Shown here piece by piece: positions 14,821-62,659 of a DNA stretch of 64,000 nucleotides. Where the stretch lies: positions 2,779 to 66,778 of the forward strand of contig CBDVDH010000015.1 in NCBI GenBank assembly GCA_965372715.1, in the 5' to 3' direction. The notes beneath the pieces are model-generated. The model worked only from the letters and a program-made list of their open reading frames with translations. It was not told the DNA's origin and did not search any database. The DNA comes from an uncultured bacterium. GTDB taxonomy: Bacteria; B130-G9. The stretch's first letter is position 1. Every line of letters begins with the position of its first letter. The position numbers and the translations under genes were made by a program.

Positions 14821-15159
14821 CTAGCACGTGAGATGAAAGCCGGCGGCGACGTTCTTGGTCTGGCAGAGCTCGTTGTAGGTTCTGACAGCCTGCTCAGTGG
14901 GGGCGGCGATGAGGTCGATGTTGTGTGATTCCATGAGCTCTCTGAAGGCCTTGGGGACCTTCATGGCCCCGTAGGCGCCGGCGCCGAGGATGAGGACGTC
15001 GGGCCTCGCGGCGAGGATGTCGGCTACATCCGCCTCGCAAATGCTGTGGCCGTCCTTTCGCCACCAGTCGGGCACGACCCGACCGTCGATTATCTTCAGG
15101 TCGGAGGTGTATTGCTTTCCGTCGATGACGATTGAGCCGAAGCTGTATGATTCTATCAT
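14821..15159 (-). CDS. Mth938-like (DUF498) domain protein
   Basis: MIESYSFGSIVIDGKQYTSD...WWRKDGH...LILGAGAYG...PTEQAVRTYN...GFHLTC. Confidence 0.9.
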   Translation of the reverse strand: MIESYSFGSIVIDGKQYTSDLKIIDGRVVPDWWRKDGHSICEADVADILAARPDVLILGAGAYGAMKVPKAFRELMESHNIDLIAAPTEQAVRTYNELCQTKNVAAGFHLTC

Positions 15160-15331
15160 GATTCCATGTCCCCAGAGTTATCCTTGTTTTTCGCAGGATT
15201 GTATGCGAAACCGGTTACGGCGTCAAGTGCGTAGGGAAGTCTGCGAGGGCAATTGACTTGCCGTCCGTTTGATGTAGGCTTTTTGTCCGCAGATTACGCA
15301 GGTTACACAGATTTGAAGAGGAGAGGATTGG

Positions 15332-16948
15332 GTGCAGGCCGAGGCAGCTGGTACTGGGTGTTCACAATGGCGCGGAGGGGCGAAAGCCCTTGCGGTCGCC
15401 ATATTGGTGCTGGCGGCGGTCGTTCGGCTTTGGGGGCTGGGTGAGCAGAGCATCTGGCAGGACGAGGCTTATTCGGTGGTTCTGGCCCGGCAGGACGTTG
15501 GCGCAATCGTAGAGAGGCAGGTCGAGGACTCCTCGCCGCCGCTTTATTACCTGCTGCTGCACATCTGGATACGGATGTTCGGCGATTCGGAGCTCTGCGC
15601 CCGGCTCTTCTCCGCCTTGTTGGGCATCTGCCTCGTCGCGGCGACGCTGCTGATCGTGTCAAGGCTGTTCCGACCGGCCGTCGGGCTTTGGGCGGGTGCG
15701 ATGCTGGCCGTCGCACCGCTTGCGGTCTATTACTCGCAGGAGGCGCGAATGTATTCGCTGACGCCTCTTCTGGCGATCATCTCAGTGTATCTTTGCCACC
15801 TAATGGCCGAAAGGCCGTCCCCGAAGCGAGTGGCTTGGTTCATCGTCGTCACGGCGGCAATGCTCTACACGCAGAACTACGGCGTTTTTGTCCTGCTGGC
15901 AGAGGGGCTATACGTTTTGGCGAGGCGAAAGGAGAGGCGGGATGCGCGGCCGATGCTCGCGCTGATGGGCGTGGTCGGGGCGTATCTGCCGTGGGTTCTG
16001 GTGTTGAGCCGCCAGGTGGCGCAGAACACGACGCCCTGGATACCGAAACCCCAGGGGCGAATGCTCTTCGAGACGCTCCTGCACCTGACGTTCAAGAGCT
16101 GGCGCCTGCCCACGACCGCGTTCCTAAATGCTCTCTGGGGGATTGGCCTCGTGGCTTTAGCGGCACTCGTCGTCTCGGCAGTGTGGTTGGTCATCCGGGC
16201 GAGGCGCTCGGGGGATGCGTCTAAACAGGAAGCGATCTGGCCGGCGCTTCTTGTATTGTCCTACACGTTCGTGCCCATCGTCTGTGCGTTCATCGCATCA
16301 TACAGCAAGCCGATCTATGTGCCGGGGCGATACGACACAATCGTTCAGCCAGGGCTTTTCATACTCGCTGGTCTTGGCCTTACGGCAATCCGTATGAAAC
16401 CGCTGAGGAAGGCGCTCGGTGTGCTGATGTTCGCAGTGCTCGTTATCTCGCTTCATTCGTATTTCACAACGTATTGGAAGAGCAACGACCGGGAGATTGC
16501 GGACTACGTTGCGCGGAACGCGACAGCGAGCGACATTGTCCTTTTCACCGACCTGACGATCACGCCATTCATATATTACCGTCCAGAGTCGAGCCTCACG
16601 ACGCTTCGGTTCCCGCGAGGGGGACTGGGTTGGACGCCGAAAGGGGCCTTCACGAACGACGTGGCCTTCTTCGAGGACGAATTCAGGCTGATTGTGCAAA
16701 GGATGAGCGCGCTTTGGCCGCAGAAGAGCCGCTTGCTGGTCGTGTTCAAGCCCTCGCCAGTGCTCTATCAACGCCTCAAGTCCCGGCTGCACGAGGAGCG
16801 GTGGCTTCGATTTGAGCGGCGCGTTCCATTCAAGATGGGGCACAACGCCGAGAATCAGGTGAGCGACATCCTGATCTTCAGCATCCTCGAGGCGCCGCCA
16901 GTCTATCCTCGGACAACGAATGACGTCACGGAGACCGAGATGAGATAA
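15332..16948 (+). CDS. GT-C fold glycosyltransferase (PMT/ArnT-like, GT39/GT83)
   Basis: SIWQDEAYS, PPLYYLLLHIW, YYSQEARMYSL and multiple TM helices. Confidence 0.88.
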   Translation: MQAEAAGTGCSQWRGGAKALAVAILVLAAVVRLWGLGEQSIWQDEAYSVVLARQDVGAIVERQVEDSSPPLYYLLLHIWIRMFGDSELCARLFSALLGICLVAATLLIVSRLFRPAVGLWAGAMLAVAPLAVYYSQEARMYSLTPLLAIISVYLCHLMAERPSPKRVAWFIVVTAAMLYTQNYGVFVLLAEGLYVLARRKERRDARPMLALMGVVGAYLPWVLVLSRQVAQNTTPWIPKPQGRMLFETLLHLTFKSWRLPTTAFLNALWGIGLVALAALVVSAVWLVIRARRSGDASKQEAIWPALLVLSYTFVPIVCAFIASYSKPIYVPGRYDTIVQPGLFILAGLGLTAIRMKPLRKALGVLMFAVLVISLHSYFTTYWKSNDREIADYVARNATASDIVLFTDLTITPFIYYRPESSLTTLRFPRGGLGWTPKGAFTNDVAFFEDEFRLIVQRMSALWPQKSRLLVVFKPSPVLYQRLKSRLHEERWLRFERRVPFKMGHNAENQVSDILIFSILEAPPVYPRTTNDVTETEMR

Positions 16949-18552
16949 TCCCTTCCGGAGGCTGTAAGCGCCGCCGCGAACTTGTATTGCCCGGTGGGAG
17001 TTTCAACCGGGACGGTCAGCTCGAATACCGTGGCCGGGCCGAAGGTGAAACCAGCGGGCAGGGCGACGTTGGTGAGCCACGGTCGAGCATCCGCGTCAAA
17101 TCCACCGTTGACCAAATAGGCTACTGCCCCGTCGGGCAATACAAATGCCAAATAGAGATCGGCAGAAAGCTGAAGCCCTGCATTCTGAACAGCTATCGAG
17201 CACTGAATACTGTCACCCGGTGCGAAGCTTCCGCCGTTGAGGTACGACTGAATTGCGAGGTGAACGGGCGCGTAGTGATAGCCGATATCGACTCTATTCA
17301 TGTCCAGGGCTCCGTCGGTTTGGGTCGTGAGACTCGTAAGAAAGAGTATCTTGGGCACTTCGGCGCCGGCGTCTATACAGGGACTGTTCGTGTCCTGACC
17401 GGCGCCCAGGCTCGAGAGATAATGATCGCCGATGGGTCCCTCTACGAAGAGCGGGTCGCCGGATACGTTACCTTCACCGCCGTGAGCCCAGCCACGAATG
17501 CACGAGTAGGAGGGCGTCGAAATGCCGAAGAACTCGTTCCCGTCACCTGGGCTATTACCCCATACGATGCAGTTTGTGATGGACCCGTAACTGCTGCACA
17601 ATCCGGCGCCGAGATCAGCGGAATTGCCACTGATCGTGCAGTTGGTCAGCCCTGCCTCACAGCTATACAGCCCTCCGCCACGTAAGGCGGAGTTGCCCGT
17701 GACGAGGCAGTTAATGATGGCGGCGTAGCAGGAATAAAGCCCGCCACCGCTCTGCTCGGCAACGTTGTCCGCCACGACGCAGCTCGTGATCGTCCCTACA
17801 CAGCCGCAGACGCCGCCTCCGTAATCGGCGGAATTGCCGGCGATGACCGAATCGGTGATTTCCCCATCGCAATAATACACGCCCCCACCGTATTCCGCCG
17901 AGTTGCCGCTGACGGTGCACCCCACGATCTCGCCGTTGCAGCGGAACAGGCCGCCGCCGCGCCCCGCGCGATTGCCCTCGATCACGCAGTCTGCAATCTG
18001 CCCGTGGAAGCCATATATCCCGCCACCATAATACTGCGCCTCGTTGTCGCGGATGTCGCAATCCACGACATCGCCGTTAGAAAGATACATCCCGCCGCCG
18101 TACTTCGCGCAGTTGCCGACGATTGTGCAGTGTTCGACCCGAGCTTGGGTCCGAATGTCAGCGTAGAAGCCCCCAACAATCCCACCGCCATTGACCGACT
18201 CGCCATTCTTGACAGTGAACCCAGCCAACAAGCAGGACTCGTCTTCAGTGCCATCAAACGTAACGACAGTGCCTGCCTTGCCCCCATCAATTATAGTTGA
18301 GGCAACAAAATCGTCGTCACCAGGGTCCAACGATTGAAGGATGATGTTCTTGCCGTTATATCGCAGATTCTCCCGATATGTCCCAGGATGAACCACTATG
18401 ACGTCCTGGTCCACTGCCACGTCAATGGCGTCCTGGATTGAGACAAAATCGGCCGAACCATCGAGATTCACCTGGTATTCCGCCGGGAAGGCCGGAGCGT
18501 CACAAATCGAGATGGCTAGCAGAAGACTGAAAAGCGGAGCCTTGAGGTTCAT
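16903..18552 (-). CDS. Secreted right-handed parallel beta-helix repeat protein with shared C-terminal domain
   Basis: Signal peptide, SIQDAID...VHPGTYREN, about 9 repeats of GNSAxxGGGxxxCxGxIxxCxI, SPCIDAG, C-terminal ~115-aa domain. Confidence 0.85.
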   Translation of the reverse strand: MNLKAPLFSLLLAISICDAPAFPAEYQVNLDGSADFVSIQDAIDVAVDQDVIVVHPGTYRENLRYNGKNIILQSLDPGDDDFVASTIIDGGKAGTVVTFDGTEDESCLLAGFTVKNGESVNGGGIVGGFYADIRTQARVEHCTIVGNCAKYGGGMYLSNGDVVDCDIRDNEAQYYGGGIYGFHGQIADCVIEGNRAGRGGGLFRCNGEIVGCTVSGNSAEYGGGVYYCDGEITDSVIAGNSADYGGGVCGCVGTITSCVVADNVAEQSGGGLYSCYAAIINCLVTGNSALRGGGLYSCEAGLTNCTISGNSADLGAGLCSSYGSITNCIVWGNSPGDGNEFFGISTPSYSCIRGWAHGGEGNVSGDPLFVEGPIGDHYLSSLGAGQDTNSPCIDAGAEVPKILFLTSLTTQTDGALDMNRVDIGYHYAPVHLAIQSYLNGGSFAPGDSIQCSIAVQNAGLQLSADLYLAFVLPDGAVAYLVNGGFDADARPWLTNVALPAGFTFGPATVFELTVPVETPTGQYKFAAALTASGRDYLISVSVTSFVVRG

Positions 18553-18699
18553 TTTGTCTCCATCGATAGCTATAACAGCTTCATCCTAGCCCAGTGTGCG
18601 CTAGTCTGGCGGCAATGCCAAAGGATTCTCTTCCAAGTCTCTTCTCTTATTGGTAAGAATACCTCGGATCGTGCTTGACCTTCGATACCTACATCGTGC

Positions 18700-20742
18700 A
18701 TGATCATAATGTATCCTAATCCGGAGGGTAATTGTATGACCCGTGCTCGGCACGTAGAATGCCTAACACTTGTAGCTGTTGGTTTGTGCTTCTGTTGCCT
18801 AACCGCTCTGGTTGGTGCACAGCCATCTTTGGATGCTAGCGGCTTCTCGATCAGGTTCTTCGCCGAGAAGGTCCACTACATCACCTGGGATCGGTTGAGG
18901 CTCTACGTGGAGATTTGCCCGCCTCAGGAGGATGTTGCCGTCGATGTGTATCTTGGTCTGGGCCTGCCGGACGGGAGGTTATACTGCTTGCTTCCGGACT
19001 TGTCATTCTCGGGCCTGATGATCGAAAAAGGCAGCCTGGTCGAGGCCAGCTGGATGGGTTCCCCCTCTCCGGTTTCCGCAGCGAGAGGCTTTCATATCAA
19101 GCGGAATGGTATGGTTCCTAAGACACTTGTCTTTAGGGCCATTCTTAGGCACGATCTGAGCCTGCCTGAAGGTGAGTATTGGCTATGGGGAATGCTGACT
19201 CCTGCTGACACTCTCCAGCCCATCACGTTCAGCGCCGAATCGTTCACTTTTGACCCGCAGCACTGCACCATCTCCGGTCAGATATCCGATGAGAACGGGC
19301 CCGCCTCGTCCGCGACGGTAAAGGTGCGCGCCTCGTCAAATGAGGTTCTGAGCGATAGAGATGGTAGATTCGTTCTTGAGGGTGTTCCATGCGACGTGCG
19401 ACTCGACGTCTCCGGCTGGAAATACGAGTATTATTGCACCGCTGCGCAGGTTCTCACGCCAACCACTAGCGTCGTGCTAAAGCTAGACCCGATAACCCCG
19501 GTTGATAACGAGGAATATGAATGGGTGCCTCCTATACCGTCCGTATCCGACCACCAATTCAACTGCATGAAATGCCTTACCCCGGCGTTTGAGCAGTGGT
19601 CCGCCAATTTCCACGCTCGCTCCGCCAGCAATGAGATATTCCAGACGCTTTACACCGGGGCCGACGTTGACGGGAACCCTGGCGTTGGGCTTGGCTACAA
19701 GCTCGATTTTCCAGAGACGGCAGGCAGCTGCGCGCTTTGCCACGCTCCCTCAGAGGCGCTCAAATCGCCATACGATTCGGATATGGCTAATCTCAGTCTG
19801 CTGGGTCAGCAAGGCGTCTTCTGTGATTTCTGCCATAAGATCATCGACGTTGACCTGTCTAACCTGGGCACGGTCTATGGCATTAACGCAATTGAATTGC
19901 GCCGTCCGTTCGCTGACCGCTGGATTGTGCTGGGACCAATCAAAGATGCCGGGCGCATAAGCACCTTCCTGCCCCTGATGAAGAAAAGCGAGATATGCGC
20001 TCCGTGCCACGCCTGTGATTTCTGGGGCGTGCCGACCTATACTTCATATCCTGAATGGGAAGCCAGCGAATACAAGGAAATGGGCATACAGTGCCAGGCG
20101 TGCCACTACAGGCCGGACGGGATCACCAAGAACTTCGCTCCTCTCAGCCACGCGCAGGAACGTGACCCGGACACCATCCCTTCTCATCTCATCATGGGCG
20201 AGGACAACATCTCGTTGCACTACGAATCCGCGATACTATCAATTGCGGCCTTAAAGGAACCGGATGATCGCCTTGTGACGACAGTCGAAGTGTTCAACGC
20301 CTTTGCAGGACATCATCTTCCTACCGGCAGGCCGATACGCAACATCATACTACTTGTCAACGCCTTCGATCGCGATGGCAACGAGCTCGAGTTCGTCGGG
20401 GAGCAAGTTGTGCCGATATACGGCGGCACGGGCGGCGGGCCACGGGACTTCGCCGGGCGCCCGGGGAAAATGTTCGCCAAGATACTGGTTGACCAGCTTG
20501 GCAATCACCCCGCCCCGTCGTGGCGGCAGACGATGATCCTGTCCGACACCCGCATCCCCGCGCTTCAATCCGATTTTTCAACCTACGAATTCCGCTTGCC
20601 AGTGGCTGCAAACACCGCGACGGTCGATGCGCGGCTCGTTTATCGGAAGATCTTCAAGGATATGGCCGATGAGAAAGGCTTGCAGCTCGAAGACATCTTG
20701 ATGACAACTGAGAACGAGTCATTCCATTTCGGGGGAGATTGA
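18700..20742 (+). CDS. Secreted multiheme c-type cytochrome with carboxypeptidase-regulatory-like domain
   Basis: CALCH, CDFCH, CAPCH, CQACH plus a variant CMKCL; AGHHLPTG and DTRIP motifs; signal peptide. Confidence 0.85.
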   Translation: MIIMYPNPEGNCMTRARHVECLTLVAVGLCFCCLTALVGAQPSLDASGFSIRFFAEKVHYITWDRLRLYVEICPPQEDVAVDVYLGLGLPDGRLYCLLPDLSFSGLMIEKGSLVEASWMGSPSPVSAARGFHIKRNGMVPKTLVFRAILRHDLSLPEGEYWLWGMLTPADTLQPITFSAESFTFDPQHCTISGQISDENGPASSATVKVRASSNEVLSDRDGRFVLEGVPCDVRLDVSGWKYEYYCTAAQVLTPTTSVVLKLDPITPVDNEEYEWVPPIPSVSDHQFNCMKCLTPAFEQWSANFHARSASNEIFQTLYTGADVDGNPGVGLGYKLDFPETAGSCALCHAPSEALKSPYDSDMANLSLLGQQGVFCDFCHKIIDVDLSNLGTVYGINAIELRRPFADRWIVLGPIKDAGRISTFLPLMKKSEICAPCHACDFWGVPTYTSYPEWEASEYKEMGIQCQACHYRPDGITKNFAPLSHAQERDPDTIPSHLIMGEDNISLHYESAILSIAALKEPDDRLVTTVEVFNAFAGHHLPTGRPIRNIILLVNAFDRDGNELEFVGEQVVPIYGGTGGGPRDFAGRPGKMFAKILVDQLGNHPAPSWRQTMILSDTRIPALQSDFSTYEFRLPVAANTATVDARLVYRKIFKDMADEKGLQLEDILMTTENESFHFGGD

Positions 20743-20746
20743 CAAC

Positions 20747-23590
20747 GTGGGGACCGCCTTTCAAACACTTGCCCGCAGCCTAGCATCTGGATGCCATCCG
20801 CGCTTCGGAGCGAAGTTATTCTGGAGCTTCATCCTTATCCTTCTTTGGGGGGGCCTCTTCATACTTCCGAGTGCTTGGGCTCAGGAGCCTAGACCCCACA
20901 GATGGACATCGACGTTGGGACCGCCCGGGGGGCTGGGCTACGACACACGCATCGACCCGCGCGACCCCAACATCGTCTATACAACCGACCAGTGGGCGGG
21001 CATGTGCATGAGCTACGATGGCGGCTATACATGGCACCCGAGAAACGAGGGCATCACAAGCAGATTCGGGCCGTCGCTCGACTCGGTTCCGATTTTCTGT
21101 TGCACGATTGACCCATACGACTCCAACATCGTTTGGTGCGGGACTTATGGGATGCGTGGGGTCTATAAGTCATTCGACAAGGGGGAGAGCTGGGTCAAAA
21201 TGGACCGCGGGATACCCGACCTCGAGGCGATGTCGTTCAGGTCCTTCACGATCAACCCCGACGACACAAATATCGTCTATACTGGGGTGGAGATTCCGGT
21301 CATCGGCCAGAATAAGTCGCGAGGCATGATATTCAAGACGACCGACGGTGGGGACAACTGGTTCACGGTTTTGGAGTGCGACGCCCTGGTTCGGTACATC
21401 GTGATCGACCCGGAGGACACGGACGTTGTCTATACGGCAACCGGCATATTTGATAGGTGGGACGTGGTCCCCGAGGGCATACTTAAGTCCGATGACGGAG
21501 GCGCAACCTGGTATCCCGTCAACAATGGCATCGACAACCTTGTGGTTGGGGGCCTGACTATGCACCCGTTCGACCACAACACGCTCTTCTGCGCGACGGG
21601 CCGGCACGAGGGTTTCGGCCCAGAGCCAGAGCCACGGCACGGCTCCATCCTAAAGACCACGGATGGGGGCCAGAGCTGGACGGAGATCGGGCCGGCGTAT
21701 CGCTGTTGGAACGCAGTGGAGGTTGACCGGAGCGATCCTGACATCATCTACGCATCAAGCGAATGGCAGTTTGCGAGAAGCTACGATGGAGGAGAGTCGT
21801 GGCAGACGATGCCTCTGGGCCTGCCGGACGTCTATTCAGGTGTTCCGATAACCATAACGATCGACCCCACCAACCCGGACAAGGTGTTTGTGAACTCCTA
21901 CACGGGCGGGCTGTATCTGTCTTTGGACGCCGGCGCCACCTGGATGAATGCAATGAACGGTTTCACTGGCGCCGAGCTGACCGACATCGCCATGGACCCC
22001 AACAGTCCGTCCGTTGTTTTTACCGTGGGGCGACCCGGCCCGTTCAAGAGCTTTGATGGCGGCCTCAACTGGTTGGGAACCGGGGGAATGTCCGGCGTCC
22101 AACCAAGGCCAGAGTGGTCGGCCGTTTGCGTCAAACCGGACGAGACGAACGTTGTCCTTGCTGCCGACCAGTTCTATGGGGAGCTATACAGGACTCTGGA
22201 CCGCGGGGAATCCTGGGACATCCTGCTGGTCATCATTCCGGTTGACCAGGTCCAATACCCTCTTTCTATTCAGGGGATCAAGACAATTGTCTTTGCGCCC
22301 TCCGATCCCTCGGTTGTCTATGCAGGCGCGAGGATACCCGATAAGACGATCGAGTTCGACCGAATGACCCCTTACGATACCACCCGTCCGAGCATGGGGG
22401 TCTATAAATCGACGGACGGGGGCGATACCTGGGTTCAGATGAACGATGGTCTGGAGAAGACCACAAAGAACATCAATCAGATCGTTGTGCACCCGCACGA
22501 CCCCGACACCGCCTATGCCGCGACGCTCAACTCCGGCGTTTACAAGACAGTTGACGGCGGCGGCCACTGGATTGACATAAACTTCGGGATAACCAGAATG
22601 GACATCAGGTCAATAGCCATAGACCCCAACAACACAGACGTGTTATATGCGGGGGCTGAAAACGCCGGGATATTCAAGAGTGAGGACGGCGGTTTGAGTT
22701 GGGTTCAGGCTAATGTAGGACTAGATGCCGAGGCAACCATACGTGACCTAGCGGTCGGTCCACTCAACAGCAATCGGGTCTATGCGGGCGACTGGCACAC
22801 CGGCGCATACATCTCGGAGGATGCCGGCGGGGTCTGGATGCACATAAATGAGGGCCTTGAGAACCGAGCGATAACGGCGCTCGACATCTCCGCGGACGGG
22901 TCAGTCCTTTACGCAGCCACCCAGGGCGGCGGCGTCTTCAGACTTGGGGATGTGGAGACGACGGCGACCCTCATGGGCCGGGTTCTGGATGCTGTAACCG
23001 GCGAGCCGGTTCAATCTGCGCTCGTTGCCCTTGACTCGACGACGTCAACTGTGCGAACCGACACAGACGGCAACTTCACGATAGAGAACCTGCCCGCACG
23101 AGCATACTCTCTTGACGTCTCCGCCTCGACCTACAAATCCTACCAGGAAGGCGACGTTCTGCTTATCGGGGGCCAGACTAAGATAACGGAGATAACGCTC
23201 TGTAGAAGACTGTATCCGGCGCTCTTCCCCTTGGTCAATGGTACCGTTTTCGTGCCCGGCGATACACTTAGACTCGATGCGCGCCTTGAGCACAAGGGCC
23301 CATCGATACACATCGATGTCTATCTGGCAATCGATACCCCTGGGGGATTGCTTTTCTTCGATGGTCTAGGCTTTACATCGGACATAGTGGGCTTCCCGTT
23401 TTTCGCCATGACCGGAACTGACTTGTTCTTCCAGATCGCTGAGATGTCTATTACAGAGCATTTTCCGTCAGGGCAGTACTCTGCCTATGGCGCCGTGACA
23501 ACATCCGGCGCTTATGACCTCTATTCGGCGACTAGGGCTACTTCATTTGAGGTAGCAGCATCCCAATTGAGAAACGGAGAGAACCGATAA
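20747..23590 (+). CDS. Secreted BNR/Asp-box (VPS10-like) beta-propeller protein with carboxypeptidase-regulatory-like domain and shared C-terminal domain
   Basis: More than 12 SxDGGxTW repeats, GRVLDAVTGEPVQSALV, C-terminal domain like that of 16903-18552. Confidence 0.88.
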   Translation: MGTAFQTLARSLASGCHPRFGAKLFWSFILILLWGGLFILPSAWAQEPRPHRWTSTLGPPGGLGYDTRIDPRDPNIVYTTDQWAGMCMSYDGGYTWHPRNEGITSRFGPSLDSVPIFCCTIDPYDSNIVWCGTYGMRGVYKSFDKGESWVKMDRGIPDLEAMSFRSFTINPDDTNIVYTGVEIPVIGQNKSRGMIFKTTDGGDNWFTVLECDALVRYIVIDPEDTDVVYTATGIFDRWDVVPEGILKSDDGGATWYPVNNGIDNLVVGGLTMHPFDHNTLFCATGRHEGFGPEPEPRHGSILKTTDGGQSWTEIGPAYRCWNAVEVDRSDPDIIYASSEWQFARSYDGGESWQTMPLGLPDVYSGVPITITIDPTNPDKVFVNSYTGGLYLSLDAGATWMNAMNGFTGAELTDIAMDPNSPSVVFTVGRPGPFKSFDGGLNWLGTGGMSGVQPRPEWSAVCVKPDETNVVLAADQFYGELYRTLDRGESWDILLVIIPVDQVQYPLSIQGIKTIVFAPSDPSVVYAGARIPDKTIEFDRMTPYDTTRPSMGVYKSTDGGDTWVQMNDGLEKTTKNINQIVVHPHDPDTAYAATLNSGVYKTVDGGGHWIDINFGITRMDIRSIAIDPNNTDVLYAGAENAGIFKSEDGGLSWVQANVGLDAEATIRDLAVGPLNSNRVYAGDWHTGAYISEDAGGVWMHINEGLENRAITALDISADGSVLYAATQGGGVFRLGDVETTATLMGRVLDAVTGEPVQSALVALDSTTSTVRTDTDGNFTIENLPARAYSLDVSASTYKSYQEGDVLLIGGQTKITEITLCRRLYPALFPLVNGTVFVPGDTLRLDARLEHKGPSIHIDVYLAIDTPGGLLFFDGLGFTSDIVGFPFFAMTGTDLFFQIAEMSITEHFPSGQYSAYGAVTTSGAYDLYSATRATSFEVAASQLRNGENR

Positions 23591-53804: not shown

Positions 53805-54023
53805 TCAGCTTTCGACCGCGTCCATGATTCCTTTTAGCTTTTTCACACCTGGCCCCAAGAGGGATACGGCCTCTTGAGCGTTGAGAAGTAACACCTCTTT
53901 CGCACGGGCGTCAATAGCCCTGAACGCCACGCTCATCAAGTGGTCCCGCATACGCTGTATCGCTTGCTCGGCGTCCGCCAAAGACGAAACGACGTCTTCT
54001 TTTCGCTGCGATATTTCAACCAT
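53805..54023 (-). CDS. Small hypothetical protein
   Basis: 72-aa helical ORF overlapping the GT2 stop, GGAGG upstream. Confidence 0.5.
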   Translation of the reverse strand: MVEISQRKEDVVSSLADAEQAIQRMRDHLMSVAFRAIDARAKEVLLLNAQEAVSLLGPGVKKLKGIMDAVES

Positions 54024-55008
54024 CGTTATTCCAGCGCCTCCTGAATACTATTTCTGTCATTACTTGCCGATAGGCTGCTATCCTGCTTCTAGCCTCGGCG
54101 CCTTTGCCAAGAAAAAACACAACACTAAAGACTATCAACCTGATCGCCGCGCCAACGGCTATCACCAGCCGCAGGGCGACGCCAGACAGCTTGTCCCTGT
54201 GCCGATCAAAGAAGTAGCACAGACTACAATAGGATTCAAACACGGTTCTCTCAAGCTCTTGGTCCGCGGACGCGCCCTGGGCATGCTCAACCGCAACTTC
54301 TGGGCAGAAGAGAACCCTAAAACCACGCTCACGGAGCCTCAACGACAGGTCCTGGTCCTCGAAGTAAAGGAAAAAGCCGGGGTCAAACAGACCAACGCTC
54401 TCAAGGTGAAGCCTTCTGCATAGAACGCACGCGCCGACTGCGTAGTCAACGTCCCGGCCAGCAACAACACCGTTCGCGGCGCGGCCGGCCTCCTGCCGGT
54501 CAAGTCCCTGCCTGGGCGCGGAGTGGCGACCAAAGGCGCGGTCGAGAAAAAGCATCTTTGCCAAAAGCTCCCGCAAAGTAACCACTCCACGATAGACCGG
54601 CGGGATCGGTTTTGCGTCCCTTTCAAGACCGGGAGCTGCGCACGCTGCGCTCTTGTTCCGCTCGAGGCAATCCACAAGCTGGCGCAGCGCCGGTGCGCCG
54701 ATCTCACAATCGGGGTTCAGAAGCAGGACTAGTTCCTCACGACCCACCATGATCCCAATGTTGCATCCGGTCGCAAAGCCCAGATTCTGCCTACTTTGGA
54801 CGACCTTAACCTCAGGAAACATCGACCTAACCGCCTCGGGCGTCCCGTCAGACGATGCGTTCTCAACAACGACGGTCCGCAAGTCGAAGGAATCGCGGCA
54901 GTTTCGAAGGCTGTTCAGACATCTCACAACCGAATCCTTGCAGTTGTAGCTGACGGAGACGACATCGATAGCCTGAACAGGCGATGAATGTGTTTTCATT
55001 GGTGACAT
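54016..55008 (-). CDS. Glycosyltransferase family 2 (WbbL-like)
   Basis: VSVSYN, VENASSDGT, NLGFATGCNIG, LLLNPD, FFLYFEDQDL. Confidence 0.9.
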   Translation of the reverse strand: MSPMKTHSSPVQAIDVVSVSYNCKDSVVRCLNSLRNCRDSFDLRTVVVENASSDGTPEAVRSMFPEVKVVQSRQNLGFATGCNIGIMVGREELVLLLNPDCEIGAPALRQLVDCLERNKSAACAAPGLERDAKPIPPVYRGVVTLRELLAKMLFLDRAFGRHSAPRQGLDRQEAGRAANGVVAGRDVDYAVGACVLCRRLHLESVGLFDPGFFLYFEDQDLSLRLRERGFRVLFCPEVAVEHAQGASADQELERTVFESYCSLCYFFDRHRDKLSGVALRLVIAVGAAIRLIVFSVVFFLGKGAEARSRIAAYRQVMTEIVFRRRWNNDG

Positions 55009-55214
55009 ATCGGTGTCCGCATTTGTGTTTGGTCAAGAACTCCTCTTGTGGAATTGTGGACAAGAGGCGTCAACAGGTCAAGGACTTCAAGAACGTTGCC
55101 TTTGATGTGGGTTTTGCAGTGTGTCGTCCATCATTCAGATTCGCAACGGCGTGTGGTTTCATTCACTGGGCCTCGTGATGTTCTTGGCCTCCTCCCGCGT
55201 TTTCGACACGCTCT

Positions 55215-55300
55215 TGTCACATTCTGTTACACTGTTCCCGGATGAGCCATTCTCGCGTATCCGAGCGGCTATAAGGCTCCATGAGTCACATATTGTTACA
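55215..55300. promoter_or_regulatory. Two putative enhancer-binding-protein sites
   Basis: TGTCACATTCTGTTACA (55215-55231, TGT-N11-ACA) and AGTCACATATTGTTACA (55284-55300), 14 of 17 identical, 170-255 bp upstream of a sigma54 site. Confidence 0.65.
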
Positions 55301-55443
55301 GATTCTTTGTGTAGCAGACCCCGAGATTAGACATTAACGACGCACGGTGCGGTTGCGGCACGACCTCCTATTCTTACCGCACACGGCGCAATCGGCGATC
55401 ACAAGGGCAAGAGCGCCCACACCACAAGATTTAGTGGGATTGA

Positions 55444-55460
55444 TTGGCACAGGACGTGCT
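55444..55460 (+). promoter_or_regulatory. Sigma54 (-24/-12) promoter
   Basis: TTGGCAC-AGGAC-GTGCT with GG at 55446-47 and GC at 55458-59; predicted TSS near 55471. Confidence 0.7.
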
Positions 55461-55470
55461 TAAACACAGA

Positions 55471-55765
55471 AGCGAGACAGATGTTGTGGTTTTGGGAATC
55501 GAGAGGCTGGCTTAGCACATTAAATCGGGGCGGAGACGAGTGTGTGGTTTCGAAGAGTTCTCCTCTTTCGAGATTAGGCTTCTCGCCCGTTGCATTTCTC
55601 CATAGGTGTCGTGTGGGAAAGCGTTGGTCTCGGTGCCTGCTGATGCGGAATCCAACTGGGCGTTGGATGCGTAACAGGGGCGCTGGGCCTTTCCCCACTT
55701 TTTGATTCTAAGTTATAAAAGTCTCTTGAGTAGTATAGGGAACCGGTTGGTTCCCGTTTTTTTTT
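55471..55765 (+). ncRNA. Candidate structured non-coding RNA (~295 nt), family not recognised
   Basis: Bounded by sigma54 promoter and terminator; closing stem 55484-55506/55698-55718 and two long internal hairpins, all rich in G-U pairs on the + strand; no convincing ORF. Confidence 0.6.
55738..55765 (+). terminator. Intrinsic terminator
   Basis: GGGAACC-GGTT-GGTTCCC then G and a 9-T run. Confidence 0.85.
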
Positions 55766-56310
55766 GATCAAACTGCCGCGGCGCTCTGAGCTTCCGTTTC
55801 AGCCATTTCTGCGTGGGATTCGGGAGCGGTAGTGAATGGGGGCCTAGCATAAGTGTCGAGCGCAGGTTTCCCGATCCAGCGCCATAATGGGATGAGTCAG
55901 CGGAATGCGAGATGGTATATGTAGTGGGCAGAGTTGTGCATGTGGCCAGTATATAGACGCACGCATCCCCCGTGTGGATTTCGGCTACACACGGGCCCGG
56001 TATTGGTCCACGCAACAGGCCCACCGGAAAGCGTCCTGGTCACTTCCTCCCTTTTGCTTCGGTCAAATGCGCCTCAAGGAGGCTTTCGCTAGTCGCTCTC
56101 CGTGCGGCAGATCGGCGCCTTTGGTGTTGTCTGCACTGAGCACTGCCCTCAGAGGTAAGCCTTTGGATCGTGCTGGTTCGGTCATCGCCAGGCTTGACAG
56201 TTCGGTGGGTTCCGAGTTATAGAAAAGGGACAGGGATGAGTTCCTGTTACGGGCGGCCAGAGAGTACGGATTGATCTGAACGACGTTTTCATATTGTCGG
56301 GAGGTTAGAT

Positions 56311-56586
56311 GTGATGGACAAGGACTACATGCCGATTGCGAAAGCGGACATAGAGAAGTCCCAGATGGGCGATGAGACATTGCTCTACAACTCGGACAAC
56401 GACAAGGTGACGGTATTGAATAAGACGGCTGCCGCTGTCTGGCAGCTTTGCGACGGGAAGCATACCATTTCGCAGATCACAGAAATGATAAACGAGAGTT
56501 TCAACCCGCCGGATGATTGCGACGTGTCCGGCGACGTTGAGGCGACGATTGAGAAGTTTAGGCAAGACGGGGTTCTGAAGGAGTAG
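56311..56586 (+). CDS. PqqD family RiPP recognition element (stand-alone)
   Basis: GDETLLYNSDNDKVTVLNKTAAAVWQLCDGKHTISQI...DVEATIEKF; GGAGG RBS; TTGACA at 56194 upstream. Confidence 0.9.
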   Translation: MMDKDYMPIAKADIEKSQMGDETLLYNSDNDKVTVLNKTAAAVWQLCDGKHTISQITEMINESFNPPDDCDVSGDVEATIEKFRQDGVLKE

Positions 56587-56722
56587 TGTTTGTTCCTTCA
56601 ATTCTGACGTATTATCAACAAGGGCAGCCCAGTTCAGGGTGGCGAAATGGCCCGCCATTGTTGAGCGGTGCGTTCGGATTATGACGCAGCGTTGGGACAT
56701 CAGGTCATTCGGAGTTTGAAAG

Positions 56723-58114
56723 TTGTCAGAGGTCATCACGGTTTCTCATGCGAGGCCCAAGCTGCCAGACGGGGTAGTTGAGCTTTCTCGTGCCGGTCAA
56801 TACCTTTTGCTGCACCCCAGATTGCCGAAGTTCGCGCTGCTAAACGACACCGCCCGGTTCATCGCATCCCTTTGTGACGGGCGCCGGACGAGTTCGGACA
56901 TAGCCCGGCTGGTCGCGAGCCACTACGGGATTGATGTTGACCGGGTCTCTTCTGACGTCGAATGCTCATTGAAGCAGCTTGAGGCGTCAGGGATGTTCAG
57001 CGACATGGTTCTAGACGAGAAGAGGTCTTTCGCGAGAGAAAACAAACGGGTTCATCTCACTATTACGGGCCACTGCAACCTCAGGTGCGCGCATTGCGGC
57101 ACGGTCGGTTCGCTGCACAAGGACGACGCCCTCACCACTTCAGACGTTAGATACATCGTGGATCAGTTGGCCGCAGTGCCGGGGTCCTCGATTGCGATCA
57201 CGGGAGGGGAGCCACTTCTTCGCAAGGACATTGTCGAAATCGTTGAATACTCCGCCCAACGGACAAAGACGATCGTCTCCACAAATGGGACGCTCGTGAC
57301 CGAGGAGCTTGCGAGGGGGCTCGGGCCACTTCCCGTGACGTTTCAGGTTAGTCTGGACGGTGCTACGGCGGAGGTTCACGACCCCATCCGAGGCTCAGGT
57401 GAGTTTCAGAGAGCGCTAAACGGCATCAAGCTGTTGCAGCGAAACGGAGCGGGGTCGAACGTCGAAATCTGCCGGACCGTCATGGGCCAGCCGGAGGACG
57501 ATTTTGATGCCCTGCTCGAGTTGGGTGAAAGCCTGGGAGTTGGGGGAATAAGGTTCCTTTGCCTGGCACGGTTGGGGCGGGCGGAGGACGACTACGATAT
57601 GCTCAATCCGACGTTTGGGAGCTTTCGAAAGTTCTATAAGGCTTACTTCAAGGCGATCTCTGATTCCGGCAGCAAGATTTCCGTGGGCGGCGGTATTCCA
57701 GGCCTTTACATCGACGTCCCGGACAGCACAATGTGGTGTCACGTTGGGGAGATGCTCGAGGTCGATCCGGAGGGGAAGATATATCCCTGCTCCATGTTGA
57801 ATCATCAGGAGTATGAGCTAGGCAATATCTGGGAGATGACGTTGCAGCAGGCTGCTGAATGCGATAGATTCATGCGGCTTCACGAGCTTCTCGCGGGCAG
57901 AGTCGAGAGGATCGAGGTGTGCAAGAAATGCGCCTTCAAGAACTACTGTCAGGGCGGATGCCCCGGAATGGCGCTGGTTGATAATGGGACTTTATTGGCA
58001 CAAGATGCCATTTGCGAGCTTCGCAAGGAGTTGTTTGAGGACCTTTTCTTCGAGGTTCTCCCGAAGCTCACGAGCAAACACGCTCTAAGCAGCTCTGAGG
58101 AGATTCAGATATAG
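56723..58114 (+). CDS. RRE-fused radical SAM/SPASM peptide maturase
   Basis: N-terminal RRE (LNDTARFIASLCDGRRT), CNLRCAHC, TGGEPLL, SLDG, SPASM CHVG...IYPC...CKKCAFKNYCQGGCP...C. Confidence 0.92.
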   Translation: MSEVITVSHARPKLPDGVVELSRAGQYLLLHPRLPKFALLNDTARFIASLCDGRRTSSDIARLVASHYGIDVDRVSSDVECSLKQLEASGMFSDMVLDEKRSFARENKRVHLTITGHCNLRCAHCGTVGSLHKDDALTTSDVRYIVDQLAAVPGSSIAITGGEPLLRKDIVEIVEYSAQRTKTIVSTNGTLVTEELARGLGPLPVTFQVSLDGATAEVHDPIRGSGEFQRALNGIKLLQRNGAGSNVEICRTVMGQPEDDFDALLELGESLGVGGIRFLCLARLGRAEDDYDMLNPTFGSFRKFYKAYFKAISDSGSKISVGGGIPGLYIDVPDSTMWCHVGEMLEVDPEGKIYPCSMLNHQEYELGNIWEMTLQQAAECDRFMRLHELLAGRVERIEVCKKCAFKNYCQGGCPGMALVDNGTLLAQDAICELRKELFEDLFFEVLPKLTSKHALSSSEEIQI

Positions 58115-58181
58115 CAATATCGAGGCGTGTCCGATACGCTTGGCTGTAGTTTCTTTCAAGTGAACGGTTCGGAGAGGTAGA

Positions 58182-59378
58182 TTGGCGCAACTGGTTACTC
58201 CAAGCCCCGAACAAGTCATCAAGAAGTTCGGCAAGCTCTGCGCTCACGCGGAGTACTATCGAGTATTTGAGCTCGATCTCTGTATCCGTTCTGACTCGGC
58301 AACCATCCTGTCGTATTTTGAGAAAATGTACTCGCATTTTGTTGTTCCGCCCCCGGATAAGCAGGTGCTCACTTACTACGTTATTGAGACACCGGTGGTT
58401 CGCGGGAACCCCGTCATCGTAGCTGACGACAGGGTTTACCTGGTTCGCAATCCGGACATATTACCCGGGTTTTCATACATGACTGTTTTCAACTCGTTTA
58501 TTGCCAAACTCCGGGAGCATTTTCTTATCCATTCGGGGGCCATGGAGTTCAAGGGCAACGGGATAATCATTCCGGGCGCGGCCCGCTGCGGCAAGACAAC
58601 CGTTACCCTATCGCTGATCGGCCGCGGGTTTTCTCTCTTCTCCGACGAGATCGCGGCGATTCACCGGCTCGACCACAAGGTCTATCCCTTCCCGAGGGGC
58701 CTCGGCATGCGCGAGGGAGTTGGGCACACTTTAAGGGGCGTTGACTTCGAGAGGCTCGAAACCATACCAATGATCGGTGGTGGTTTCAAACGCGTCCTGG
58801 ACATTGGTGAGCTGAAGGGAGCGCTGGCTACAGAGCCGTGTCCCGCGAAGTTCATATTCTTTCTTGTGCCATCTGTGGACGAGGACTACTCCCAGTTGGC
58901 GTCGCAGAAGGTTCTATACCTAATAACGAGTGATGTGCCCGGCAAAATGCTCGCCGAAATGGGCAAGGTTGATGGCGTTGAGTCGGTGGAGGTTACGGGC
59001 GACACCTCCGAGGCGAAGTTCCCAATCGTCCGTTTCCGCGTTCAGAGCGGCTATCCCGTCCTGGCGAAGCTGGAAGAGATATGCTACAATCACAATGTTC
59101 TGATCTTTGACACCGTCAAGGGTGAACACGTCAAACCTGACTTTGAGGGACGACCGCAGCTGACGCCAATGCCATATTCCAGGGCGATGTTTGAGCTTCT
59201 AACAAGGGCCCGGTCCGGCGCGCGCTCGGCGCTCTTGACCACCCAGTTCAAGGGAAGCGTCACAAAGATGTACCTTGCGCTCGCCGACATCGTCAGAAAG
59301 ACGAAATGCTACGAACTGGTCGTCGGCAGGCTCGACGAAATGATCGACATGATCGAAGAGACAGTTGCCGGCGATTAG
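58182..59378 (+). CDS. HPr kinase-related P-loop protein
   Basis: FLIHSGAM, Walker A GAARCGKTT, FSDEIAAI, PFPRGL. Confidence 0.8.
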   Translation: MAQLVTPSPEQVIKKFGKLCAHAEYYRVFELDLCIRSDSATILSYFEKMYSHFVVPPPDKQVLTYYVIETPVVRGNPVIVADDRVYLVRNPDILPGFSYMTVFNSFIAKLREHFLIHSGAMEFKGNGIIIPGAARCGKTTVTLSLIGRGFSLFSDEIAAIHRLDHKVYPFPRGLGMREGVGHTLRGVDFERLETIPMIGGGFKRVLDIGELKGALATEPCPAKFIFFLVPSVDEDYSQLASQKVLYLITSDVPGKMLAEMGKVDGVESVEVTGDTSEAKFPIVRFRVQSGYPVLAKLEEICYNHNVLIFDTVKGEHVKPDFEGRPQLTPMPYSRAMFELLTRARSGARSALLTTQFKGSVTKMYLALADIVRKTKCYELVVGRLDEMIDMIEETVAGD

Positions 59379-59419
59379 GTAAGAAGAACCTGATCTGCAC
59401 CTCGAAAGGGGGCTCGTAT

Positions 59420-62400
59420 ATGAAGATAACGCTCGCTTCAAGACCGTTTTTCCACCTTCTGCTGGCAGCCTCGCTCTTTGCGATGGTTTCGGGCCCAGTT
59501 TTTTGCGCCGAAATAGCGAAGGCCGTTGTGCGCGAGAGCGGCGAGAGTCATTTCCTAATTGATTTCGAGGCGCCCAGACCCACATTCGGATGGGACGAGC
59601 TTGAAGGTAATCTGTATGACGTTGTGAAGGTCGCTGGCTGTGAAAGCATCGGTGAGCCGGGCAGGCCGGATGTGCCGTTTCTGGGCTTCTTGCTTGCGGT
59701 CCCATCGGACTGCGAGCCTTCTGCCAATTGCGAATCGGCTCAGGATGAGGAGTTCTTCGGCTTTCACGTCGCGCCGAGCCCGCGGTTCGTCAGGGCGGAG
59801 CTGGGCGAGACGGTTGCTCTTGAGCCTCGCTTTGAGCTAGACGAGGAGCAATACAACACCGACGCCTACTACCCAGACTCGATCGTCGAGGCGGAGTACT
59901 TCGGGGTTCTGCGGGGGCAGCCGCTCATCCGTGTGATGGTCTTCCCGGTGAGGTTCAATCCGGTCTCGGGCAGCCTTCAGGTCATCAAGCGAGCGACCTT
60001 TACGGTGCACTTCGAGAGGGATTCGACCAAATCGCGTTGCAGCAGAGCAGGCGTTCTATATTCGGAGATTGGGTCATCGTCCAGAATGGTCGATGCGGTC
60101 AAGAGCTGCGTCGCAAACCCCGACGATGTCCAGCCCATTTTGGCCAGGGATGTCCCGGCCTCGGACCATGACGTGATACCGCTTGCGAACGGTTTGCACC
60201 AATACAAGATCGCCGTTAGCGAGGACAGCATCTACGAGGTTACGGGCGCCGACTTGGTTGCGGCGGGCATCACAATCTCGACGATCGCCCCGGACGGACT
60301 TGCGATAGGCAATCTAGGACAAGGTGTTGCGATTCTCGTCGAGGACGGCGCCGACGGAAGCTTTGATGAGTCGGACTACCTCCTGTTTTGGGGCGAGGCG
60401 CCGGAGAGCGAGTTCACGAACTACAACATATACTGGCTCGACTTCGATCGGGAAGTGGCTTTGAGAATGGAGGTTGTTGATGCTGCTCCGACCGGTGGGG
60501 CGCCGGTCGCCACGTCCTTTATCAATACACCACGATTTGAGGAGGACACAAGCTATTGGCAAAACATCCCCGACAGCGAGGGCGAGGACCACTACTTCTG
60601 GGGAGCCTATGTCCCAGCTCCTGACACCGAGACATATCCATTGGAAATCCACAACCTTTCAAGTGAGGCCTTCAACGCGACAATAATCGTTGAGTTCAGG
60701 GGAAGGACCGATATAACACGCGTTGATCCTGACCATCACACCCAGATACTGCTCAACGATCAGATCATCGATGACAAGACGTGGAACGGCCAGATCAAGT
60801 TCATTCACAGCATTACAGGTCCGCAGTCTCTGCTTCGGAATGGACGAAACGAACTGAAGGTGGAGTATCCGGGCGACCTAACGCTCGTTGACCAGGTCTT
60901 TTTCAACTACTTCCAGATCACGTATCTCGCGACGTTCGTGGCGACCGTCGGTGTGCTAGAGTTCTCGCCTCAGGAAACAGGCTTGACTGAGTTTCGAGTC
61001 AGCGGCTTTTCGTCGGACGAGATAATGGTGTTCGACGTGACTGACCCCTTTGGAGTGAAGAACCTCACGAACGTCTCTGTTGCGCCTGACGGTGACGGGT
61101 TCGCCGTGAGCTTTCAGGACGACACGTCTCCCGATAAGAGATATGTCGTCGCTCAGAGCTCAGCGTTTAGGACCGGGATGTCGCTTCAACCTGACATTCC
61201 CTCCTCTCTCATGTCGGCCGAGAACCGGGCCGACTATATCATCATCTCACACGCCAATTTCATTGAGGCAGCCGAGGGCATAGCCCAGCATCATGCGGCG
61301 AAGGGCGAGGTGGTGCTGCTGGCTGACGTTGAGGACATCTATGACGAGTTCAATTTCGGCCTAAAGAGCCCGCAGGCCATAAAGGATTTCCTGGAGTACG
61401 CGTATGAGAATTATTCACCGCCTCCTCCGACAGACGTGTTGCTCGTGGGCGATGCGGACATGGATTACAAAAACAGAGTTGGTTCGGAGGTCGATTTCGT
61501 GCCAACCCACGTTTACAACGATCCCGATACAAGGCGCCTCGGCGAGACGCCGACCGACAATTGGTTCGTGTGTGTTGATGGCCCGGACGTCCTGCCCGAC
61601 ATGAACATCGGGCGGATCTGCGCCAAACGCGCGAGCGACGTCGATGACGTGCTTGCCAAAATACAGGCTTATGACAACGGTCAGGCGAGCGGCGACTGGT
61701 TATATAGGGTGCTTCTTGTCGCCGACGGTGAGAGCGCCTCGGTTGCCATCAACCAACAACTGAGCTCGTTCTACCTGCCTGATGAGTATGAGGACACTCA
61801 CGTCAACTTCAATGACTACGGTTCAGGACAAGATGCCAATGAGGACATAATCTCAAATCTCAACGAAGGCTGTCTGCTGGTCAATTACGCGGGCCACGGT
61901 AACATAAACAGGTGGGCCAAGGGCATGTTCTCTTCAGGCGACGTGGCCGGGCTCCAAAACGGTGTTCGGATGCCGTTTGTGATAACTTTGACCTGCCTGA
62001 ACGGTTTCTTTCCACATCTGGACAGCACCGCGTGCTTGGGCGACGTTTTCATGAAAACGGCCGGGAAAGGCGCTATAGCCTCCTGGTCCCCGACCGGCGT
62101 TGACACACCCTCCAACCATTCGATACTGGTAAATGTGTTCTTCGAGTCGGTCTTCTATGATTTCAACTGCTACCTGGGCGCGGCCACGACGACCGCCAAG
62201 GTCCGGGGCTACGCGATCGCGGGATATAGCAGTTATTTCGACTGCATAGTCGAGACATTTACACTGTTCGGCGACCCCGGACTTGCACTCGCTGTTCCGA
62301 CGGCGCCGCCGGAGCCGCGTCTCACGGTCTGGACTGATAAGGAAACATATTACGCCGATCAGACTATCAACGTCGATGTGATGCTTGAGAACACCGGCGG

Positions 62401-62659
62401 CGCATCGATGCAGGTTGATGCCTACCTGGCTCTGGATTACAACGGAACGCTTCTCTACTATCCTAGCTTCGGCCTCGAGCCGGCGCCAATTCCCGTCGAT
62501 CTTCCCGCGTTTCTGAAGTTGAGGCTTCGCGCCGCCTCTTTGGCAGTGCCGAACCCGGCGCCTGCCGGGACATACGCGTTCTATGCGGCGCTGACACAGC
62601 CCGGCGACATGTCGCAGATCATCGGCGCAATAGACGCGGCGACGTTCGAGATCCGCTGA
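59420..62659 (+). CDS. C25 (gingipain/PorU-like) cysteine peptidase with propeptide and shared C-terminal domain
   Basis: Signal peptide from ATG 59420, GEPGRPDVP propeptide, ADYIIIS, DIYDEF, LLVGDA, DMNIGRI, catalytic NYAGHG and TLTCLNG, LFGDP. Confidence 0.9.
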   Translation: MKITLASRPFFHLLLAASLFAMVSGPVFCAEIAKAVVRESGESHFLIDFEAPRPTFGWDELEGNLYDVVKVAGCESIGEPGRPDVPFLGFLLAVPSDCEPSANCESAQDEEFFGFHVAPSPRFVRAELGETVALEPRFELDEEQYNTDAYYPDSIVEAEYFGVLRGQPLIRVMVFPVRFNPVSGSLQVIKRATFTVHFERDSTKSRCSRAGVLYSEIGSSSRMVDAVKSCVANPDDVQPILARDVPASDHDVIPLANGLHQYKIAVSEDSIYEVTGADLVAAGITISTIAPDGLAIGNLGQGVAILVEDGADGSFDESDYLLFWGEAPESEFTNYNIYWLDFDREVALRMEVVDAAPTGGAPVATSFINTPRFEEDTSYWQNIPDSEGEDHYFWGAYVPAPDTETYPLEIHNLSSEAFNATIIVEFRGRTDITRVDPDHHTQILLNDQIIDDKTWNGQIKFIHSITGPQSLLRNGRNELKVEYPGDLTLVDQVFFNYFQITYLATFVATVGVLEFSPQETGLTEFRVSGFSSDEIMVFDVTDPFGVKNLTNVSVAPDGDGFAVSFQDDTSPDKRYVVAQSSAFRTGMSLQPDIPSSLMSAENRADYIIISHANFIEAAEGIAQHHAAKGEVVLLADVEDIYDEFNFGLKSPQAIKDFLEYAYENYSPPPPTDVLLVGDADMDYKNRVGSEVDFVPTHVYNDPDTRRLGETPTDNWFVCVDGPDVLPDMNIGRICAKRASDVDDVLAKIQAYDNGQASGDWLYRVLLVADGESASVAINQQLSSFYLPDEYEDTHVNFNDYGSGQDANEDIISNLNEGCLLVNYAGHGNINRWAKGMFSSGDVAGLQNGVRMPFVITLTCLNGFFPHLDSTACLGDVFMKTAGKGAIASWSPTGVDTPSNHSILVNVFFESVFYDFNCYLGAATTTAKVRGYAIAGYSSYFDCIVETFTLFGDPGLALAVPTAPPEPRLTVWTDKETYYADQTINVDVMLENTGGASMQVDAYLALDYNGTLLYYPSFGLEPAPIPVDLPAFLKLRLRAASLAVPNPAPAGTYAFYAALTQPGDMSQIIGAIDAATFEIR

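Follow-up and report, generated by a model that had tools for sequence, protein, structure and literature searches.

A structured RNA of about 295 nt is very probably encoded by a gene of its own at positions 55471-55765 (+ strand) of the window, by which we mean the whole 64,000-nt stretch of DNA analyzed, part of contig C15 of a 3.56-Mb genome that was assembled from a metagenome and is 95.9% complete. The RNA appears to represent a new family, so far encountered only in one family of Candidatus Coatesbacteria, and its gene is probably controlled by sigma-54 together with an activator. The region had been singled out in an earlier reading of the bare sequence (hereinafter referred to as the original prediction) as a self-contained, activator-controlled, sigma-54-type unit for a structured, strand-specific, non-coding RNA, and the comparison of homologous sequences supported this description.

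The two 17-mers, the -24/-12 promoter and the terminator ending at 55765 that had been claimed were all found in place when the sequence from 54900 to 56100 was read. The distal site for a putative activator (bacterial enhancer-binding protein, bEBP), referred to as upstream activator site 1 (UAS1), is located at 55215-55231 and forms a 17-bp imperfect palindrome, TGTCAYA-N3-TGTTACA. The proximal site, UAS2, is located at 55284-55300, 69 bp from UAS1, and starts 161 bp before the promoter. The sigma-54 type promoter, TGGCAC-N5-GTGCT, is present at 55445-55460 on the + strand; from the GC at -13/-12, transcription was predicted to start near 55471. At the other end, an intrinsic terminator is encoded at 55738-55765, composed of a 7-bp GC-rich stem (55738-55755) with a 4-nt loop and followed by nine U. 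The activator sites and the promoter were assigned from their sequence and conservation, and the RNA from its conservation and fold, with both of its ends inferred; promoter, start site and terminator are predictions drawn from consensus matches and conservation.

A DNA search detected the region in all six other genomes of the same family, which represent four genera, and in none of 34 genomes outside the family. A covariance model covering only the core formed by hairpins P3 and P4 (described below) detected a single copy in each of the seven family genomes and no copy in any of 144 other genomes. Applied to the genome of the window, the model produced one real match and one noise match at E = 0.38, in agreement with nhmmer, and no paralogue was found there by either nhmmer or the covariance model. 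A 22-nt pattern from the invariant core was further used for an exact search of species-representative genomes and metagenome contigs, which returned six stretches among the species-representative genomes (two Candidatus Coatesbacteria) and eight metagenome contigs. A match in Photobacterium jeanii (L017, 7484-7505) was rejected as a chance occurrence, being exact over the 22-nt pattern and showing no similarity beyond it. Since the search outside the family relied on sampled genomes and a single exact-word scan, the restriction to this family is to be read as "not found elsewhere in what was searched". Among DNA contigs of public sequencing runs, two salt-marsh runs contained close relatives about 95% alike, and a marine-sediment and a subsurface run contained parts of the stretch. 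The RNA had been called unrecognised, and the covariance models of Rfam 15 indeed produced no match between 54000 and 57000 at E values up to 1, nor anywhere in the window at gathering score.

For the structural analysis, identical copies were dropped, leaving an alignment of 10 distinct full-length sequences that were 50-97% identical pairwise. The + strand of the predicted RNA folded at -114.7 kcal/mol (z = -4.18), a value that none of 200 shuffled sequences equaled, and the - strand at -74.3 kcal/mol (z = -2.48), which was equaled by 7 of 200 shuffles. A consensus structure was obtained with RNAalifold, from which one spurious helix was removed before the pairs were counted. It consisted of four hairpins (P1 to P4) and the terminator; 96.4% of 610 cells were paired, and 12 of the 61 pairs showed changes on both sides. 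The observed values were reached by none of 500 shuffles on three measures, and sliding the partners by 1-3 columns lowered the paired fraction to 40-53%. The fold is thus supported by compensatory changes, with the reservation that the structure was derived from the same alignment on which it was tested and that the alignment holds only 10 related sequences.

G-U pairs accounted for 94 of the 610 cells, and the mirror-image fold on the - strand would pair only 81.6% of them, so that the argument from G-U pairs for a strand-specific structure, first made on the window's sequence, held over the whole alignment. Compensatory changes together with G-U pairs favoring one strand point to selection at the level of RNA. 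They also speak against the possibility that the block is conserved merely as DNA, either as an extended regulatory region of the divergent glycosyltransferase (GT2) operon or as the remnant of a mobile element, with no functional RNA being made. That operon is the constant neighbor of the region, as such a reading would lead one to expect. Its first gene nevertheless has a conserved sigma-70-like promoter of its own about 135 bp from UAS1; moreover, the sigma-54 promoter and the terminator bracket the conserved block exactly, and the element occurs in a single copy without repeats. Conservation as DNA only was accordingly regarded as very remote.

The individual elements differed in how they were conserved. 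The 5' end of the predicted RNA is a nearly invariant block (55474-55497), recognized from invariant alignment columns, in which GAGAC is followed by a G/U-rich run ending in GGGA. The possible hairpin P1, formed by 55473-55478 with 55489-55494, is weak: its 6 pairs were paired in 100% of cells but showed one-sided changes only. P2 (55528-55588) has a conserved GC-rich base and a variable tip, and 3 of its 10 pairs showed changes on both sides; natural variants at 55535 and 55582, found in DNA contigs of the public runs, restored two P2 pairs. P3 (55592-55614) is a small hairpin of 7 pairs, 2 of which showed both-sided changes, and it still pairs in the most distant homologue (G003) despite a different sequence. 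P4 (55615-55695) is long and irregular. Both-sided changes were found in 3 of the 6 pairs of its base helix, and its upper helix of 25 pairs was paired in 98.4% of cells and contained conserved bulges. Within P4, a block of 26 nt (55620-55645) was invariant in 9 of the 10 sequences, the tenth (L004) carrying one substitution. P4 is followed by a variable A/U-rich linker (55696-55737 in the window) that ranged from 27 to 46 nt in length and had an A+U content of 54-74%, compared with 43-50% in the body of the RNA, in all 10 sequences. In the terminator, 3 of the 7 pairs showed both-sided changes, and 8-9 T were counted among the first 10 bases past the stem in all 10 sequences.

P2 and P4 correspond to hairpins A and B of the original prediction, both of which were conserved and carried compensatory changes. 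The remaining part of the fold proposed there, a closing stem of about 21 bp together with a GAGAC/GTCTC pair, was not upheld. When the 5' region was paired with the 3' linker, z was -2.0 in the window, with 4.3% of shuffles as good, but lay between -1.26 and +1.26 for the nine remaining sequences; the weak long-range pairing is confined to the window's genome.

It was also observed that CGAGAC at the 5' end (55473-55478) and GTCTCG within P4 (55628-55633), both of them invariant, are perfectly complementary. A 6-bp match of this kind has a chance expectation of about 7% by a rough estimate. The complementarity could allow an alternative fold, for which covariation is no test, because neither side varies.

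Comparative sequence analysis also indicated that the RNA is non-coding. An ORF (open reading frame) of 74 aa with an ATG start (55481-55705) begins just past the predicted transcription start in the window, and peptide-maturation genes are located nearby, so that the transcript could be thought of as the mRNA of a small protein, either this one or a shorter peptide such as a precursor for the neighboring maturases. In other genera, however, the ATG is replaced by AAG or AGG; the ORF is 64 aa long in G001, no + strand ORF of at least 30 aa exists in L005, L027 and L028, and L025 has only an unrelated 40-aa ORF starting with TTG. No + strand ORF of at least 30 aa was common to all ten sequences. 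Indels were mostly not multiples of three, with gaps of mostly 1 or 2 nt, and broke the frame even between sequences 93% identical. Variable columns showed no excess at third positions (48 of 72, 42 of 70 and 44 of 70 by codon position), and about 40 nt passed without any synonymous change in 9 of the 10 sequences, which is unlike the evolution of coding sequences. In addition, the translation of the 74-aa ORF is rich in W, R and C. The check for conserved codon structure thus found no conserved ORF, in line with the RNA having been predicted to be non-coding, and a coding role was given next to no weight. Even when pooled, the coding reading and that of conservation as DNA only are highly improbable.

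Control by sigma-54 was suggested by conservation rather than by the promoter sequence as such. The strict promoter pattern had 34 matches in the 3.56-Mb genome, compared with about 27 expected from a rough estimate assuming uniform base composition; because this number is close to chance, the match alone proves little. The evidence exceeding chance is that both activator sites and the promoter were found together in all 10 homologous loci with an upstream flank. In these loci, UAS1 and UAS2 were always offset by 68-69 bp, the nearer site started 137-161 bp and the farther site 205-230 bp before the promoter, and TGGCAC-N5-nTGCT was kept at the same place while N5 varied. Conservation of the RNA set in right at the predicted start. 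The promoter has GG at -24 and GC at -12 with fixed spacing, and the sites are located at enhancer distance. The genome also encodes the corresponding machinery, with one RpoN (a single match to Sigma54_DBD) and 10 matches to Sigma54_activat, each of which scored above cut-off. Taken together, control of the RNA gene by sigma-54 and an activator was considered probable.

The arrangement had originally been compared with the one described for PEP-CTERM surface genes controlled by PrsR. In the report on that element, a 17-nt motif ending in TTTACA, sometimes repeated, precedes a sigma-54 motif in a long non-coding region, with a spacer of 62.8 nt on average (range 32-92); the element is described there only from Proteobacteria, upstream of PEP-CTERM genes, and co-occurs with PrsR, PrsK and PrsT (Haft et al., 2006; PMC1569441). 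As far as that text describes the element, the two are alike in having a 17-nt motif before a sigma-54 site, and the TTTACA at the 3' end of the motif resembles GTTACA in the present site. They differ in that the nearest site here starts 137-161 bp before the promoter and not 32-92 nt, and in that a non-coding RNA and a terminator follow instead of a PEP-CTERM protein gene. Further, the best score for PrsR (TIGR02915) in the genome was 433.2 bits, below the cut-off of 502.6, and no match to the EpsH exosortase (TIGR02602) was found in the genome at its completeness of 95.9%. A PEP-CTERM/PrsR layout was not supported; the resemblance is generic to NtrC-type enhancers.

The terminator and the genes beyond it bear on whether the RNA is a unit of its own. 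In five loci (the window, G001, G004, G003 and L025), a PqqD protein, a PqqD-radical-SAM-SPASM maturase, an HprK-like kinase and a C25/PorU-like peptidase are encoded downstream. In the window, these comprise a stand-alone PqqD-family gene (56311-56586, + strand; Pfam E = 2.5e-11) and a peptide-modification cassette (56723-62659, + strand) encoding the maturase, an HprK-related kinase-like protein and a 1117-aa peptidase. In genus g2, the downstream genes are instead an unknown 91-aa ORF and an S8 subtilase, and in L028 they are MnhE and a flavoprotein oxidoreductase. Because the downstream genes vary in this way, the RNA was interpreted as its own unit and not as the leader of the peptide-modification cassette; the independence of the unit is further indicated by a terminator that has been kept through compensatory changes.

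A cis-acting leader, i.e. a riboswitch or attenuator in which conditional read-through of the terminator would express the PqqD, radical-SAM, kinase and C25 genes, was considered in this context. In the five loci named above, the RNA precedes the PqqD and radical-SAM genes and shares their strand, and riboswitches usually consist of a structured RNA that ends in a terminator. Against such a role stand the three different downstream contexts and a gap of about 250-545 nt between terminator and next gene, the single RNA copy per genome, the strength and conservation of the terminator, and the linker of variable length between P4 and the terminator, where no conserved antiterminator was apparent. 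A leader function is hence quite improbable.

The divergent operon on the other side was the only constant neighbor, present in every locus with an upstream flank. It encodes a GT2 glycosyltransferase (54016-55008, - strand; assigned by Pfam and synteny), an unknown 332-aa protein and a DUF362 protein. Its sigma-70-like promoter (TTGACC, 17 bp, CACAAT; 55081-55053, - strand) was conserved in 10 aligned loci. The RNA had been linked to the envelope or peptide-modification genes on either side of it; the GT2 side of this link is constant, as a matter of synteny only, and the side of the PqqD/radical-SAM cassette did not stand, given its variation in g2 and L028. With regard to the annotation of these genes, the GT2 start codon may be at 55017, 9 nt before the one listed, and the PqqD gene is masked by a longer antisense ORF (56305-56739). 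The 545-nt gap at 55766-56310 contained no small ORF conserved across four loci, and the precursor peptide of the cassette was not located. The neighboring proteins, including the maturase, the kinase-like protein and the peptidase of the cassette, gave nothing above cut-off in NCBIfam.

A candidate for the activator was suggested by the distribution of the sites. Only 2 of the 34 promoter-like sites carried a 17-bp site within 350 bp upstream, namely the RNA promoter and a promoter 60-70 bp past the stop codon of a gene for a giant activator. This protein of 1756 aa is encoded on contig C40 of genome G000 (15589-20856, - strand) and also in L029 (7587-12857). It combines a protein kinase domain, an AAA_16 STAND ATPase, TPR repeats, a sigma-54 interaction (AAA+) domain and a Fis-type helix-turn-helix domain, and orthologues were present in all seven family genomes. 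A site about 100 bp before the start of the activator gene, as well as a site and promoter after its stop codon, were found in 5 of the 6 genomes with flanks (G000, G001, G002, G006 and G004), representing three genera. This kinase-STAND-TPR protein is the likely activator of the RNA promoter, an assignment we favor with moderate confidence. Several points weigh against it. It was chosen because the same sites flank its gene, and adjacency is the sole argument; no such sites were found near the fragmented activator gene of G003; and the 15-bp core of the activator site occurs at five places in the genome, which is about the chance level.

Two further copies of the 15-bp core in G000 (C40:8336 and C53:6313) have no match to a sigma-54 promoter nearby, and one of them lies just after a helicase/MZB gene pair downstream of the activator locus. 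The second promoter on C40 (about 14940-15540, - strand; L030:830-1450) consists of a 17-bp site and TGGCAC-N5-ATGCT, followed by a leader of about 430 nt, which contains a block conserved across three genera, and by a gene for a single-domain response regulator. The leader had no match in Rfam and no folding advantage (z = 0.11). A second protein similar in size to the giant activator (1850 aa) is encoded on C11. When the neighbors of the giant activator were compared with PADLOC, only generic helicase, kinase and AAA+ similarities were obtained, and a link to defense was not supported.

In the explanation that we consider best, a sigma-54 activator would bind the pair of 17-bp sites, which are separated by 68-69 bp and precede the promoter by about 140-230 bp, and would remodel sigma-54 RNA polymerase at TGGCAC-N5-GTGCT, giving an RNA that starts near 55471 and stops near 55765; the activator would be the 1756-aa protein, whose own gene is flanked by the same sites. 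The RNA would act in trans as a regulatory small RNA (sRNA), most likely by pairing with other RNAs via its nearly invariant 5' block with the help of Hfq, and P4 would be a module that confers stability or is recognized by a protein. As a whole, with the mechanism included, this explanation is put forward tentatively and with more doubt than confidence. Similar reserve applies to the base-pairing, Hfq-type mechanism taken by itself, in which action in trans and the use of Hfq are what we infer only. It is consistent with the presence of hfq in the genome (86.6 bits at C4:1700-1888) and with the intrinsic terminator, the U tail and the preceding A/U-rich linker found in all 10 sequences.

Searches for base-pairing partners gave results that weigh against this mechanism. 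Perfectly complementary 12-mers numbered 109 in the genome against 108.8 expected, i.e. without a target signal. When the first 34 nt of the RNA were scanned for duplexes with 2780 start regions, which had been called crudely, the best value was -34.2 kcal/mol, within the range of five shuffled seeds (-32.5 to -36.8). Pairing with the mRNA of the activator, as would be required for feedback, gave z values from -0.77 to +0.31 in four genomes, and pairing with the GT2 leader, where very long duplexes were obtained, gave -1.18 to +2.14 in nine loci. These target scans were crude, having no accessibility term and relying on self-made ORF calls. Moreover, no stretch of 7 nt combined conservation of at least 90% with a predicted state that is mostly unpaired, and the nearly invariant 5' block is itself not predicted to be mostly open. 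The strongest conservation is located in helix P4 and not in a single-stranded seed, which fits recognition by a protein or ligand better than base pairing.

Protein-binding models are known from GlmY with RapZ, 6S RNA and CsrB. By analogy, the RNA might work as a sponge, a decoy or the scaffold of a ribonucleoprotein (RNP), with P4 docking a specific protein that sigma-54-driven bursts of the RNA would titrate or assemble. Consistent with this, the pairing partner of the near-invariant 55620-55645 is itself nearly invariant, and the conservation of P4 extends to bulged bases and to G-U positions, beyond what the need for pairing would explain; the lack of a target signal and of a conserved accessible seed points in the same direction, and a csrA gene is present in the genome. 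A partner protein was not identified, however, and neither the nearly invariant 5' block nor the Hfq-like 3' end is explained by protein binding. The structure has no 6S-like rod with a central bubble, and there was no Rfam match. A sponge for CsrA of the CsrB/RsmZ type was rejected, as it would be expected to carry many GGA motifs in hairpin loops, and by our own count only about 4-5 GGA motifs are conserved, most of them in stems. Protein binding as the mode of action was on balance judged rather unlikely.

Comparison with known systems places the RNA among sigma-54-dependent sRNAs in its design. The sRNAs GlmY and GlmZ of Enterobacteriaceae, each encoded by a gene of its own, measure about 150-200 nt or more and form several stem-loops. 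They are transcribed with sigma-54 and the activator GlrR from promoters preceded, at 100-230 bp, by repeated palindromic activator sites of the TGT...ACA type; they are linked to envelope sugar metabolism, and GlmY works by protein binding through a conserved stem-loop. The present gene resembles them as a stand-alone, multi-hairpin sRNA gene with a sigma-54 promoter and palindromic sites upstream. It differs in belonging to an unrelated phylum, in having no Rfam match, in its 17-bp site TGT-N11-ACA present in two copies 68-69 bp apart, and in its likely activator, which is a kinase-STAND-TPR fusion and not a response regulator.

Qrr RNAs are about 100 nt long, exist in several copies and pair through a known single-stranded seed that is conserved, and CrcZ is a sponge with repeated A-rich motifs; both, like the present RNA, are independent units with intrinsic terminators. 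The present RNA, in contrast, is about 295 nt long and single-copy and lacks repeated motifs, and no seed was found in it. A further likeness is that the regulatory RNAs Qrr (with LuxO) and CrcZ (with CbrB) depend for their transcription on sigma-54 and a dedicated activator (bioRxiv 10.1101/2021.07.01.450815; PMC6296734). Features shared with Hfq-dependent trans-acting sRNAs in general are an own promoter, a terminator with a long U tail after an A/U-rich stretch, the presence of hfq and a conserved 5' block. Compared with typical members of that group, the RNA is much longer and more structured, its strongest conservation lies within a helix, and no target or clearly accessible seed was found. 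The design of the RNA is that of known sigma-54-dependent sRNAs, whereas the family itself appears new, exceeds GlmY/GlmZ, Qrr and CrcZ in length and degree of structure, and seemingly answers to an unusual activator.

Among the papers listed by a literature search on Candidatus Coatesbacteria, which are uncultured, none dealt with their RNAs, as judged by titles or the beginnings of abstracts. The RNA family does not open a long-standing question. In its most far-reaching interpretation, the RNA would be the output of a signaling pathway under the giant kinase-STAND-TPR activator, its near-invariant irregular hairpin of about 80 nt would be a protein or ligand module, possibly with a CGAGAC/GTCTCG switch, and it would belong to a class of riboregulators or RNPs not seen before, restricted to one candidate phylum and coupled to genes for the glycosylation of the envelope or the maturation of peptides. 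This interpretation is speculative, and we consider it unlikely in its entirety. More immediately, the RNA is a clean candidate for a new Rfam family, for which the promoter, enhancer sites, terminator, fold and a probable dedicated activator have all been defined from sequence. The combination of kinase, STAND, TPR and sigma-54 AAA+ domains in one activator is unusual, and the locus offers a defined test case for it as well as a first handle on sigma-54 regulatory circuits in the Coatesbacteria lineage.

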